DNA of 64,000 bases, from assembly GCA_040954595.2 (NCBI GenBank), contig CM082580.2, forward strand, positions 10,704,390-10,768,389. Reading direction: 5' to 3'. The translations under genes were made by a program, and so were the position numbers. Positions 43,827-52,162 of the stretch are shown here, in pieces. The DNA is from Balanoglossus misakiensis (taxonomy: Eukaryota > Animalia > Hemichordata). Within the stretch, counting starts at the first letter, position 1. Each line of letters begins with the position of its first letter. Under the pieces are notes generated by a model, which worked only from the letters and a program-made list of their open reading frames with translations, did not search any database and had not been told where the DNA came from.

Positions 43827-43980
43827 CATGGCAACACTATTCATGACGGGCTGACAACAAACCATGTCTATGGTGTGTCTGTCCTGATACCTTATTGTCA
43901 TAGTTACGAAATGTTTTGTGCATTCCATTTTGTAACCAACCAATATCAATTGTTGCCATGGTTTTGTAAACATCAATAAA
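43827..43980 (+). promoter_or_regulatory. SECIS element A plus conserved downstream hairpin and polyA signal
   Basis: ATGA 43843, helix II, AAA with CCA/TGG apical mini-stem (type II), TGA 43885; AATAAA 43975. Confidence 0.9.
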
Positions 43981-45550
43981 CTGTCTACTTGATATTAATA
44001 AAGTGTCTCAATGATTGATCAATGTTACCTTTGCACACTCACTATACCACCGCGTTGTTCTATGTTCGATGATCTCATAGAAAATGATTGACATCTGCGA
44101 AGAATTGGACATTCTACCCAGGGGGTGTCAACGTACCTTGGGCATGATGGATGCTGTGTGTACGATAATATATATCATGTATATGGACTCAGTAAACAAC
44201 GCCATCATGCGACTAAGCGGTAAAATATTACCCATGGTGAAGGAATGCTTATCACTTCACAAAATCTTGAATGCAAATATGCGAACATATGGCTAAATAT
44301 ATTCTCATTTTCTGACAGTTTTCACTAAAGTTTCTGAAGAATAAAGCACGTTTGGTGTTCAAGACAAATAAGCCACAGGCGCATATGGCATATTTTGGGA
44401 TAGTGCAGATCATTTTTAATTTGTAGGATATGCATTACTTGTTGTTTTTATGTACAGCATTTCATCATCGTCAAATGGAGAATGACGACATGCATGCTTC
44501 TTTGGAAGAAGCGTTTTAAAACCACAGCATTTACATGGATAATCTGCATGTGATTTGACTCTGAAGTATATTGTAAGAAACAAAAGAGACACACATATAT
44601 ATATATATTATCATTTTACTTGTTGTCCTTTTCTGAAAGTTCATCTTAATAAACCACTTTTGGTGGCAATGTCGGAACGCGCGGCCATAATGACCTGAAT
44701 CCCTATCGTAGTTCGTAATGATGCGGTTTGTGTCGGAACACACCGGAATTATCTAACAGATTACGAGTCACGCATGCCCGTTTTGTAATATTCTCACAGT
44801 GAGTGCCAACATTCGACATCTCAGTACAAAGGTTCGTGTCGGGGTGAAGGACGGTGCGTCCCAGCAGCACGCAATGTGAGTTGTCTGATAACCGCTTGTG
44901 CAATAGAATCTGCACCGTGTTATCCTCCTCGGTCACGAAAAGGGCGTTCACCGTTCAGCAGATGTTGTTGAAATGTAAGGCTATTTGCGTAAGTGATAAT
45001 TTGCATAAATGGTGTAAGCTTGTTGCATGTGCCCGTAACTAGAAATCGCCAATTTTTAGGTGTACGCAAGAAACGTTCTGTGGTGGCCTCAAATTACTTT
45101 AGGCCTAGTCTTAATCTCCCACAGGATATCAGACCATGCAGAAAAATCATATTTTACAATAATGATAAAGTTTGACAGAAGCGCTAGGCACACTGTCTGC
45201 TTCCGAGCGAATCAAACCAGCTGTAGATAGTGATGTAATGATAGTGAGTTTTTTTACGTCAGACACTGTGAACACATCACAATAAAGGGACTAGTCTATA
45301 AAGTTGAGAGTGGGAACATAATCGGGGGGGGGGGGATTATTGTTTCCGATGGTTTACGACTGCAGAGTTTCAATGTTAAATTTCAGCTTGGCGTGAACTC
45401 ATACCGCATTGGTCGGCCCCTAGCAGTTTTTAAACGTAGGTCTACGTGTTCAAAATCATGAGAATACTACCATGTGTGCACACACCGAGTGCTTTTTTTT
45501 TTCAATAAAAGGGCCAGTCAACTGAAATTAGGCATTATGTGAGGTGGATC

Positions 45551-47837
45551 ATGGCGTTTCGGATTGGAGCCTTCGTGCTCCTCTCTTGTGTGGCCCTGGG
45601 CCTCGGGCAGTTCGTGTCGTTGAAAAAGTACTGCGACGCTACAACTAAAAGCATCCATGATTATGGCGGTACTCCGCTACAGACCGGAGTTCCGATTTCG
45701 CTCAGCGATTTCAAAGGTTACACCGTTCTTGTCATCGCTAGCTCCACATACTGAGGTAGGATATTGTATTTTCGTTTATTCATTGAGTCGATATTTTACT
45801 TTTAAAAAATCACGTGTATACTCTCCCTGCCTCTGTCTGTCTGTCTGTCTCTCTCTCTCACTCTGTCTCTCTCTCTCCCCTCTCTCAGCCTACACACACC
45901 AGTATCTGGAACTGAATGCACTTGTTGACGAATTTGCAGCAGATAACTTCACCATACTTGCGTACCCATGCAATCAATTCTGTAAGTTCTATAGTAATAT
46001 CATGTCCGTTCTCTGTCTGTACACACCTCTCCTTATGTATTTACTGTTTCTCCGCTCCGTGTCGAGAAATTAAAATATGACGCCATCTACATTATCTCTA
46101 TAGGAGGGTATTGTGGGTTGGATGGGGACCAACTCAGGAACGGGGTAAAATTAACTCTAAACATCACCGAACATTACGTGATCCATTTGTTTATCATATC
46201 ATTCATGTGTCGAGACATCCCTATCAGACACGCCCGTGTTATCATCATTACATTCACCCGTACCGAAATTGGGTCGTTGGCTATTAAGAGACAACCAGTT
46301 GCATAAGTCATGAATGTTATGCAGGTGATTCGATTAATCTGTGACGTCATCGGTGAAAAGTTCATTTGTGTAGGATTTTAGGAATCCCTTCAATTTTGCT
46401 TGTGGTTCCAGGGCTGCAAGAACCCGGGGCGAATGATGAGATCTTGAACGGGATCCAGTATGTACGCCCGGGAGGTGGCTACGTGCCCAACTTCACACTC
46501 TTCGAGAAGGGGGATGCGAACGGCATTAATGCCCAAGAGATATGGTTACATCTCCAGGTACAGTAATGTTGAATACGTTTCATTCGTTGTCAGATAGGCT
46601 ATCCGTGTCGTTGACTGGGACCCTGCCTCGGTGACAAACACCAAAGAGGCAGGTAAGGTCAAACCGCCATATTTAGAATTGTGGAATCTGGCTAATAAAT
46701 GAACGTTCTATAACTTCCGGGCTAGATTCAATCTGTCGCGTTTCTTGACATTCAATTTTACTCTTACCGAATATACATATTTTAAAAAAACCAACAGTTT
46801 ATGATGGAAGTGAAGCTAAAATCAATACAACTACTGACACAAATGAACGTAAGCTTTACAACAGACATGCGCATTAGCCCTAACACATTACAAAATGGCG
46901 GACGGCCTTTATCTGCGTATCGCGTTAGTCTCGGTTACCCAGACGCCTTTGCTCTTCCGATGCTCTCCAGAAAAGGGTCTGGGGAAATACTATTGAAAGC
47001 TTTGTAAAACAAAATGGCCGATGTCAGGATTTTGATCATCGCCTGATTGGCTGAGCTGTCAGTATGACCCGGGTCACTGCAATAGTTTCGACAATCGTCT
47101 ACCAAAGATATTTCATATAATTTCTCCAACAATGCTAACAGAGGACGCCTTTTGCCTTTCGCACCAACCAACAAGTACCGGTCTCTTGATATGAAGATAC
47201 GACAAATAATCACACATTGTCGAGAGTCAGTGACCCGGGTCATACTGACAGCTCAGCCAATCAGGCGATGATCAAAATCCTGACATCGGCCATTTTGTTT
47301 TACAAAGCTTTCAATAGTATTTCCCCAGACCCTTTTCTGGAGAGCATCGGAAGAGCAAAGGCGTCTGGGTAACCGAGACTACGTATCGCGTATATCTTCG
47401 TGACCTGTCTTTTTGCTTAGTCACGTGAGACGCAGTGTTCAGCGAATCCGTGTCGGTTCGCCTGACACTACGCTTCTCTCCAGCGAGAGAATGTCGAAAG
47501 GGTTCTGGTCAACATAACGAGCAAGAAACTCTGTCCAGTAAGGACAGAAAGTAAAACGAGATCGATGAGAAAGATAATACACCTGTTTGATGTCGCTGTC
47601 TACATTCTATTGCAGACTACTTGCAAAAGCGCCAATCCTGACATGGGTGACAAAACTGTTCTGGCTTGGGATTCCCTGAACGTCGATAACATCCGTTGGA
47701 CCTTCGCCGACAGGTTCATTGTTGACGTCGACGGTATTCCGTACATCCGTATCTACGATGAAAAAGACCCATACGAGCCTGGCGGCCTCCGGGATGACCT
47801 GGAGCAGTACTTCCGGGACGGGTACATTGACCTGTAA
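45551..47837 (+). CDS. Secreted selenocysteine glutathione peroxidase, copy B
   Basis: Exons 45551-45755, 45889-45981, 46412-46557, 47616-47837; TGA 45752-45754 (ASSTY-U-AYT); [22 protein letters not shown]. Confidence 0.93.
46926..47381. mobile_element. 456-bp MITE with 154-bp inverted repeats and a 10-bp target-site duplication
   Basis: 46926-47079 is the reverse complement of 47228-47381 (TAGTCTCGG...CCGAGACTA); flanked by cgtatcgcgt at 46916-46925 and 47382-47391. Confidence 0.93.
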
Positions 47838-47968
47838 ATAGCGCCCTCAAAGGGAAGGAATCAGCTAATGAATATGATGTGACAAACGACTCACAGTAAT
47901 TATAGAGAAAGCGCGAACCTATTTTATTAACAATGTGATAATGTTGCATGGGAGTTTGTTGTTTGTTT

Positions 47969-50662: not shown

Positions 50663-51925
50663 ATGGCGTTCAAGTTTGGGACCTTCGTGGTCCTCACACT
50701 GGTCGCCTTGGGCTTCGGCCCCATGGCAACCAGCGCAAAGAAACGACGCTGTGACGCGACGGAACGGTCCCTCTATGACTACAGCGGAACATCGTTACAG
50801 TCAGGGCTGACCGAATCACTTCAACAGTTTCGAGGGAAGACTCTCTTGATCGTCCCAACGTCGACTTACTGAGGTATAAAAGGCTTTGTTGAAAACTTCC
50901 TTATCCTAAAGGTATCGTGAAAACTTGATACCTTAGAGTCAGCATGAATTTTTCAATCGCTCTGCTAATTTCATCATTTACTTGTTCCTCCCCCCCCCCC
51001 TCTCTCTCTCTCTCTCTGTCTCTCCGTCTCTCTCTCCGCCTCTTTCTGCTCTTCTCTCTGTAGGGTTCACCTTTCAGTATGTCCAACTGAATGCACTTGT
51101 TGAAGAATTCGCAGATCGCAACTTCACCGTCATAGCGTACCCGACTAATCAATTCGGTAAATGTTTATCACATTATCAGATAACACAGTTTCTTCCATGT
51201 TGTGTTTTGAAACCAACAATTGAATTCTTCCGGACGCAAATGCAATTGGCAACGAAGCTTTACACATTATCAGACATCATACAGGTTGTTTTAAACCGGA
51301 AGGGTCGACTGACTTGAAATTGCGTCTAGTGTGCTTGTCTCACAATGTGGGTTGTGGAAAATACATGTACAGGGTGAATCTTGAGACACATGCTTACATA
51401 ACTTTGTCTGTACGCCCTTCAGGAAAACAAGAACCAGGTAGAGACAGTGAGATCTTGAATGGGCTCAAGTATGTGAGACCAGGCAACAATTTCGAGCCGA
51501 ATTTCACGGTCATGCAGAAGGGTGACGTCAACGGGTTCTATGCGCAAGAAATCTGGAAATTTCTCAGGGTAAAAATAATCCATTGATAGTTTCTTAATAG
51601 TTCTGCTTAGTTTATAACCACGCGAAAGCCTTCTATGCATGGACCCTTGAGTATAGGGTCTGTGGTCCTTCTGAGAAAACATTTTGTTGATTTCCTACAG
51701 GAGACTTGCCCTTCTCCCGAGGACAGAATCGGATACAGTCGTAGCATGTTCTGGGATCCAATCGACAGCAACGACGTCCGATGGACCTTCATGGAGCGTT
51801 TCATCGTCGACGCTGAGGGCAAACCGTACATGCGCATGAATGATCGCCGCAACCCGTACGCAGCCGGTGGTCTCAGAGACGACATCCTGCAATACTTGAC
51901 AGACGGCCACATCGATGAAGAATAG
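50663..51925 (+). CDS. Secreted selenocysteine glutathione peroxidase, copy D
   Basis: Exons 50663-50873, 51064-51156, 51423-51568, 51701-51925; TGA 50870-50872 (PTSTY-U-GFT); [22 protein letters not shown]. Confidence 0.93.
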
Positions 51926-52015
51926 CGCCGCCACAGGATACTTTTTCTGGATACAAGTTGATGTACAACTGCACTTCTCAGATTCTTCACTGTGTATCTC
52001 TCAGTTTATTGTTAC

Positions 52016-52162
52016 CATGGCAACAATTTTCATGACGGGCTGGCAGTAAACCATATCTGTGGTGTGCCTTCCCTGATCTTGCATTGTCATAGTTACGAAA
52101 TGTTTAGTGCATTCCGTTTTGTAACCAACCAGTGTCCATTGTTACCATGACAAAGCAATAAA
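52016..52162 (+). promoter_or_regulatory. SECIS element D plus conserved hairpin and polyA signal
   Basis: ATGA 52032, AAA plus CCA/TGG mini-stem, TGA 52074; AATAAA 52157. Confidence 0.9.

Follow-up and report, generated by a model that had tools for sequence, protein, structure and literature searches.

What might a stretch of RNA do that lies directly 3′ of a selenocysteine insertion sequence (SECIS) and is more conserved than the SECIS itself? The question is raised by a 64,000-nucleotide (nt) stretch of DNA from the acorn worm Balanoglossus misakiensis (contig CM082580.2; hereafter the window, whose numbering is used throughout), in which four tandem genes for glutathione peroxidases (GPx), here called A to D, each carry such a block in their 3′ untranslated regions (3′UTRs). 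The initial annotation had proposed that the block couples selenocysteine (Sec) recoding to a second input, namely protein or small-RNA binding, stability or 3′ processing, and so overlooked the partner with the best support, the coding sequence (CDS) of the gene itself just 3′ of the UGA. With slightly better than even confidence, we propose that the loop of a hairpin within the block base-pairs with a frozen coding stretch past the Sec UGA, tethering the SECIS near that codon and raising Sec insertion.

All four genes are intact, with four exons each and a hydrophobic N-terminal leader, and their single in-frame TGA, at the end of exon 1 and at the GPx catalytic position, interrupts a frame that is otherwise open. 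The Sec UGA lies 1 nt before the first exon junction, and two further junctions follow downstream.

Gene A, secreted GPx3-like selenoprotein: 42360-43685, forward strand; exons 42360-42579, 42853-42945, 43074-43219 and 43464-43685; Sec UGA 42576-42578.
Gene B, secreted GPx3-like selenoprotein: 45551-47837, forward strand; exons 45551-45755, 45889-45981, 46412-46557 and 47616-47837; Sec UGA 45752-45754.
Gene C, secreted GPx3-like selenoprotein: 48584-50033, forward strand; exons 48584-48785, 49099-49191, 49365-49510 and 49809-50033; Sec UGA 48782-48784.
Gene D, secreted GPx3-like selenoprotein: 50663-51925, forward strand; exons 50663-50873, 51064-51156, 51423-51568 and 51701-51925; Sec UGA 50870-50872.

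The conserved block and its coding complement

First, the block itself is exceptionally constant. Its four copies, each 49 nt long and starting at 43894, 48040, 50245 and 52083, vary at two sites (47 of 49 columns invariant), which upholds the earlier observation that it is more conserved than the SECIS (30/54 invariant columns), the exons (39-56%) or the stop-to-SECIS spacer (9/174). With up to 3 mismatches allowed, 0.38 occurrences of a 17-mer taken from it would be expected in the window, where exactly 4 are present. As first described, an 11-bp stem with a 12-nt loop is predicted in all four copies (pair probability about 0.9-1.0), the variant of A falling in the loop and that of D making a U-G pair; the hairpin is longer than the annotation had it, however, with a further lower stem of 5-6 bp, in which A carries one compensatory change, beneath a 5x4 internal loop. 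Block and SECIS belong to a module that is followed by the polyadenylation motif AATAAA.

Module A: 43826-43961, forward strand; outer helix 43826-43838 with 43949-43961; AUGA at 43843; second hairpin about 43893-43945; loop 43914-43925; AATAAA at 43975.
Module B: 47969-48107, forward strand; SECIS AUGA at 47986; block 48040-48088; loop 48060-48071; AATAAA at 48121.
Module C: 50178-50312, forward strand; SECIS AUGA at 50195; block 50245-50293; loop 50265-50276; AATAAA at 50325.
Module D: 52015-52149, forward strand; SECIS AUGA at 52032; block 52083-52131; loop 52103-52114; AATAAA at 52157.

Second, the 12-nt loop is, in all four genes and at the same offset, the reverse complement of the exon-2 sequence encoding E/Q-L-N-A-L. 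The complement extends over 8, 9, 10 and 9 nt in A, B, C and D, respectively, at positions +27 to +34/36 after the UGA, and 617-671 nt of spliced mRNA separate loop and target.

Gene A, invariant 13-nt coding run encoding E-L-N-A-L in exon 2: 42874-42886, forward strand; target 42878-42885 (8 bp), +27 to +34.
Gene B, invariant 13-nt coding run: 45910-45922, forward strand; target 45914-45922 (9 bp).
Gene C, invariant coding run: 49120-49133, forward strand; target 49124-49133 (10 bp, or 11 counting a G-U pair).
Gene D, invariant 13-nt coding run: 51085-51097, forward strand; target 51089-51097 (9 bp).

The target falls within a 13-nt coding run that is invariant in all four genes and longer than any other such run in the alignment (the next has 8 nt), and this run freezes synonymous positions, whereas elsewhere the same codon is kept at 1/15 invariant six-fold and 4/32 invariant four-fold residues. 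The 9-mer of the complement is present 7 times in the 64 kb, where 0.71 would be expected: at the four coding sites and in three of the loops (B, C and D). Shuffling the consensus loop produced a complement in all four CDSs in 19/100000 trials at 9 nt and 153/100000 at 8 nt; shuffling the whole block gave 37/30000 and 482/30000, respectively, and resampling codons gave a match of at least 8 nt in all four in 1/20000 trials for the loop and 139/20000 for the block. The duplexes have computed energies of -11.3, -12.2, -14.2 and -12.2 kcal/mol in A to D, the target being the best partner of the loop in every mRNA by a margin of 3.1-7.2 kcal/mol, and the loop bases are predicted to be open (unpaired probability 0.79-1.0, opening cost below 0.2 kcal/mol).

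Third, both motifs recur in vertebrates. Published texts were searched for them; primer papers were picked by title, and only the matching passage of the primer table was used. The coding 13-mer stands in GPX3 primers for chicken (PMC10788287), human (PMC5037574), mouse (PMC7139809) and rabbit (PMC12566316), and in all four primers an A follows, giving the Leu codon CTA as in gene C and one more pair with the loop. A mouse Gpx3 primer labelled forward (PMC7596060) contains TTAGTGCATTC, 11 nt identical to the hemichordate loop, with flanking stem bases that differ from the hemichordate ones. This primer is not the antisense of the coding site, from which it departs on both flanks, and its motif would form a 12-bp duplex with the mouse coding site. 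Since its open-frame translations are absent from the human GPx3 residues compared (chain 54-200 only), the motif appears to be located in the mouse 3′UTR. The same 11-mer was also met in further papers with unrelated titles. A human GPX6 primer pair (PMC4493270) has a first primer ending in ATGA and a second that, read as a reverse primer, holds the loop motif; the table as excerpted states no orientation, and the sense reading, C-H-D-L-N-A, does not match the E-L-N context of GPx3/5/6, so that human GPX6 probably carries the loop motif on the sense strand downstream of the ATGA primer. GPx6 has Sec in human and Cys in rat and mouse (PMC3316567). A match in a mud-crab primer (PMC12570186) belongs to superoxide dismutase and was set aside as chance.

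Loss of Sec and loss of the target may go together in the GPx6 lineage. The GPx6 structure 7fc2, which we take to be of mouse origin, reads ELNTL, in line with a target lost when Sec is lost. An enclosing helix similar to that described below is presumably present in the UTR of human GPX3 as well; we mention this as a lead only. Beyond these genes, a GPx1-type viral selenoprotein gene (L009) has neither the coding nor the loop motif; a metagenome scan with a 19-mer returned 8 loci, none with a SECIS or the remainder of the hairpin; a scan of genome contigs confirmed 0/42 candidates; and among 78 viral GPx loci, the loop 9-mer lay 3′ of the GPx match in 0/78.

The predicted junction and a possible tether

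What would the block do in the company of the SECIS? All four copies have the SECIS 5′ AUGA and 3′ GA core, a helix 2 in which 86% of cells are paired (with one compensatory change), an unpaired AA about 11-12 nt above the AUGA by way of helix 2, and an apical minihelix of 4 invariant pairs. Judged on these features they are type 2 SECIS elements, a class to which SBP2 binding and UGA recoding also belong. The Rfam SECIS_1 model (RF00031) gives them 34.4, 33.3, 32.5 and 25.1 bits, all below its gathering score of 35 (E 0.0006-0.21), and a search of the 64 kb with Rfam returned no match reaching a gathering score. The annotation's view that the module falls outside described families holds insofar as no Rfam family covers the block or hairpin. 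As candidates for the hairpin, microRNA and small nucleolar RNA families were rejected on weak Rfam scores (12.5-18.8 bits for microRNA families, against gathering scores of 74-100). A minus-strand match that resembles the antioxidant response element consensus occurs, by inspection, in 2/4 copies only and was dropped.

The multi-branch module first suggested finds support from folding in all four copies. An outer helix encloses SECIS and hairpin just as described, down to a compensatory pair in B and a mismatch in D, with AATAAA 7-14 nt past it (the first estimate was within about 15 nt). Constrained folding favours this three-way form, made of the outer helix, the SECIS arm and the hairpin arm with its 5-6 bp lower stem, over a plain SECIS by 4.7, 10.1, 6.7 and 7.7 kcal/mol. 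In comparison with shuffled sequences, every module has a better fold than the majority (z -2.0 to -3.3; 0-7/200 shuffles as good). The Rfam model uses the five bases at the start of the block to close helix I, whereas the same 5′ arm has a longer partner past the hairpin; the proximal helix has a predicted probability of 0.00 in 4/4 copies, though it is formally still possible. None of the predicted folds has a simple two-way internal loop closed by helix 1, and the third helix lies on the strand that is not bulged in the G-A/A-G motif in the predicted secondary structure. The outer helix is thus predicted to serve as SECIS helix I in a three-way junction. It is predicted with less certainty in 2/8 folds, namely those of the whole UTR of B (0.40) and of the isolated module of C (0.35); the prediction of helix 2 in C is also poor. 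To call the outer helix covarying, as was done before, overstates the case: one of its 13 pairs has a double change, and the count for the whole structure was reached by 101/500 shuffles. Helix 2 and the lower stem likewise show one double change each, and with four sequences none of this is significant.

We suggest a mechanism in which SECIS and loop would sit on separate arms of the three-way junction, and in which the loop would pair with the coding site at +27. A ribosome covers about 12-15 nt 3′ of the codon that it is reading. With the UGA in the A site, the target would lie just outside the covered stretch, and the ribosome paused at the UGA would have the SECIS, together with SBP2 and eEFSec, kept at its side. 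Such a tether would last while the UGA is decoded and come apart within a few codons as elongation resumes. The effect of the pairing on recoding would, we infer, be positive. In excerpts of PMC2761289 (here and below, papers are cited for excerpted passages), the human Gpx3 SECIS is 350-fold weaker than that of SelX in a luciferase reporter, which is devoid of the native GPx3 coding site. SBP2 affinity differs only 2-fold, the internal loop ranks among the main determinants of SECIS strength, and Sec insertion for Gpx3, the most abundant blood selenoprotein, is supported by a 500-nt 3′UTR and not by a 100-nt one (PMC2761289). These results fit a positive role of the pairing. SBP2 favours a large internal loop (PMC1874613), which a loose junction would allow.

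How does such an arrangement compare with known systems? Like a eukaryotic type 2 SECIS (as defined in PMC2761289), each copy has the AUGA/GA core, helix 2 and the AAA bulge below the minihelix, in the 3′UTR of a gene whose GPx active site has an in-frame UGA. It differs in that helix I is predicted to close about 55 nt further 3′, with a hairpin inside the 3′ side of the internal loop. The predicted topology is that of a k-junction, a kink-turn with a third helix inserted in its non-bulged strand (PMC4005666, PMC10573300). The known examples are tight, their C and T helices are coaxial and L7Ae does not fold them, whereas linkers of 2-4 nt are predicted here; the word SECIS is absent from both papers. 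A conserved hairpin directly 3′ of the SECIS also exists in SelS, where it is called SL2 (PMC3628699). That hairpin has an AU-rich loop and is conserved in shape but not in sequence, in contrast to the sequence-invariant loop without an AU-rich element seen here; the excerpts of the SelS paper describe no enclosing helix or coding partner, and its region inhibits insertion. A parallel for the pairing is stop-codon readthrough in luteoviruses such as barley yellow dwarf virus, in which a stop-proximal and a distal element about 700-750 nt apart are proposed to pair (PMC3159437). The complement here is of 8-10 nt at 617-671 nt, with synonymous sites frozen near the stop codon; it differs in being part of a cellular mRNA, in concerning Sec recoding instead of near-cognate readthrough, and in having its distal partner joined to a SECIS. 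A coding signal just 3′ of the Sec UGA is also known as the selenocysteine redefinition element (SRE) of SEPN1 (PMC3159437, PMC9599142). The SRE forms locally, as a 16-bp stem-loop that begins 6 nt past the UGA, whereas the present coding element is a single strand of 9-10 nt at +27 with its partner in the 3′UTR. A long stem-loop of the SRE type is absent, the minimum free energy (MFE) folds around the UGA of genes A to D giving only short hairpins that contain it.

One such hairpin is an observation in its own right. TACTGA at the Sec codon is complementary to (T)CAGTA at +12 to +17, both within short invariant runs (in A, 42573-42578 with 42863-42869, and at equivalent places in B, C and D). 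The MFE fold pairs the two across the first exon junction in 4/4 spliced mRNAs, hiding the UGA in a small hairpin.

More tentatively, and with somewhat less than even confidence, we extend the proposal to GPx3-family mRNAs from acorn worms to humans, in which pairing between 3′UTR and CDS would park a three-way-junction SECIS by its UGA as a gene-specific RNA address. The idea touches two open questions, namely how a SECIS that is hundreds of nt away reaches its UGA, and what makes the strength of a SECIS in reporters diverge from the abundance of its protein. If true, it would account for the weakness of the human GPX3 SECIS in heterologous reporters despite GPx3 being the most abundant plasma selenoprotein; synonymous variants in ELNAL, or variants just 3′ of the GPX3 SECIS, could alter plasma GPx3; and codon-optimised or minimal-SECIS constructs would under-report GPx3 expression. 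A literature search found neither a GPx3 UTR-CDS pairing nor a three-way SECIS in titles and opening abstracts, with most subscription papers outside its coverage.

Competing explanations

Several observations weigh against a tether that promotes recoding. The loop-CDS duplex shows no compensatory change, both partners being invariant, and in A a loop variant that lacks compensation leaves 8 bp. The match was recognised post hoc, and in the weakest null, at the level of the block, shuffles equalled it in 482/30000 trials. The viral gene L009 has a chance 8-nt complement at +41; as this shows what a single gene can yield, it is conservation that carries the argument. In B, C and D, several positions of the target have an unpaired probability of 0.1-0.6, so that access to it is only partial. 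At the level of the fold, pairing of the SECIS AUGAC with the GUCAU of the block yields an alternative that differs from the three-way form by no more than about 3 kcal/mol, being the lower of the two in A and C and the higher in B and D. Moreover, the failure of L7Ae to fold k-junctions (PMC10573300) implies that a third helix could hinder SBP2.

Comparison with relatives adds further difficulties. The Ala codon is altered in 3/5 hemichordate relatives, three Saccoglossus paralogs reading LNDL, LNEL and FNQL, so that the duplex would be broken unless those loops co-vary; of these three, one reads Asp at the Sec position and two are gene models from which the Sec region is missing. At the protein level, ELNAL is retained in human GPx5, which is a Cys enzyme. 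The 3′UTR placement of the vertebrate loop motif, moreover, is deduced from primers and not from UTR sequence. The paralog with Asp in place of Sec, Saccoglossus XP_006825262, has FNQL where the loop would pair; it may have lost the site along with Sec, or its model may be in error.

Could the pairing be real and yet act in the opposite sense? It might slow or repress recoding or set mRNA decay, since failed recoding, with exon junctions downstream of the UGA, would yield a substrate for nonsense-mediated decay, and the SECIS core could also be switched off by the AUGAC-GUCAU pairing. We consider this unlikely, while noting that the conservation evidence is identical to that for a tether that promotes recoding and that the core-sequestering fold is so close in energy to the three-way fold. 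Further weight comes from SelS, where sequence 3′ of the SECIS inhibits insertion (PMC3628699), and from the behaviour of k-junctions towards L7Ae noted above. The "off" fold is overrated, however, as the energy model leaves out the non-canonical core pairs; its ensemble probability is only 0.00-0.23, and the Gpx3 literature (PMC2761289, as excerpted) indicates missing positive elements.

Less probable still, and in our view quite doubtful, is that the block is an accessory hairpin like that of SelS, read by a protein or microRNA, with the coding 13-mer frozen for some other purpose (e.g., as a splicing enhancer where exon 2 begins) and the complementarity incidental. The stem and internal loop are as invariant as the loop (47/49), which goes beyond what loop pairing needs, and the loop region presumably resembles Musashi-type UAG motifs and a miR-1 seed match. 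A post-SECIS hairpin also has precedent in SelS SL2 (PMC3628699). Against this, two separately frozen motifs must then be exact complements by chance (about 0.02-0.1%) and must recur together in mouse Gpx3, where the primer matches the loop only and not the flanking stem bases.

Gene conversion, which the initial annotation had named as something that would refute its reading, shows a real signal. The grouping of A with B and C with D is supported by 1/8 informative sites in the UTR versus 62/95 in the coding sequence (Fisher p=0.005), a conflict that suggests conversion, or homoplasy at wobble positions. Conversion may thus inflate the identity of the block, a further point against our proposal, and is probably one source of the close similarity of the stems. 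Three substitutions in helix 2 are common to B and D, whose SECIS regions (47986-48100 and 52032-52140) are 90% identical, whereas their proteins, at 53% identity, are the most distant pair, making this region a candidate conversion tract. That recent conversion among the tandem paralogs homogenised the UTR tract, leaving a block without special function beyond the long helix I, is nonetheless very improbable. Within the module, the block has 47/49 invariant columns versus 51/90 for the remainder (p=2e-7), and the adjoining linker bases have diverged. Nor can conversion freeze the 13-mer of exon 2 or put both motifs into vertebrate GPx3, so that the loop-CDS match and the vertebrate motifs stay unexplained by it.

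Finally, the idea of a microRNA precursor within the UTR, or of an element that acts as DNA on the following gene, hardly deserves credence, for all that the hairpin is about 55 nt long and invariant in sequence and the paralogs are closely spaced: only about 17 bp are paired, split 6+11 by the 5x4 loop, the best microRNA score is 18.8 bits versus 74, the loop is as conserved as the arms, and, against a promoter role, no copy lies upstream of A, one follows the last gene, D, and the distance to the SECIS is fixed.

Gene family and surroundings

The wider family places the four genes among hemichordate GPx3-like proteins. Pfam GSHPx matches exons 2 and 3, exon 3 is nearest to GPx6/5/3 among solved structures, and a tblastn search of the 64-kb window found no GPx piece beyond genes A to D. 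A profile of exon 4 searched against 1.84 billion proteins gave 72 matches at E<=0.001, the top two being GPx3-like proteins of Saccoglossus kowalevskii, and a further protein search added two Saccoglossus proteins and one from Glandiceps talaboti (accessions XP_006817233, XP_077862454, XP_006825262 and XP_077866788 for Saccoglossus, XP_077978855 for Glandiceps); a search for the exon-4 words among longer proteins found nothing in 7 candidates. In a tree of 15 rows, A to D share a starred clade with five hemichordate proteins, pairing as (A,B) and (C,D), and the path from A to C (0.91) is longer than that from A to Saccoglossus (0.83), which in turn exceeds that to Glandiceps (0.66). Because four-fold synonymous sites among A to D are only 32-46% identical, the duplications that produced them are, by this measure, old.

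In all nine of these hemichordate proteins (A to D and the five relatives), the GPx motif W-N-F-E-K-F reads W-T-F-x-E/D-R-F, which lies in exon 4 at approximately 43545-43570, 47697-47722, 49890-49915 and 51782-51807. The Asn that we take to belong to the catalytic tetrad is replaced by Thr, with an insertion of one residue, and the active site of this subfamily may be altered.

Other features of the genes and the window are recorded here in brief. A CT microsatellite ends intron 1 of B, C and D (45820-45888, 48976-49097 and 50987-51062), directly preceding the acceptor of exon 2, the exon that contains the loop target. Intron 3 of gene B holds an insertion at 46926-47381 that resembles a miniature inverted-repeat transposable element, with perfectly complementary arms of 154 nt, a spacing of 148 nt and TA at both ends. 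The neighbours, all on the reverse strand, are a single-exon rhodopsin-family G-protein-coupled receptor (9177-10583), an AAA ATPase exon (23375-23809) that we take to be proteasome subunit-like, and two GDNF/GAS1-domain exons (59674-60036 and 61354-61737). A 91-nt sequence present in two copies 12 kb apart (17594-17684 and 29599-29689), which are 90% identical, is probably a dispersed repeat.

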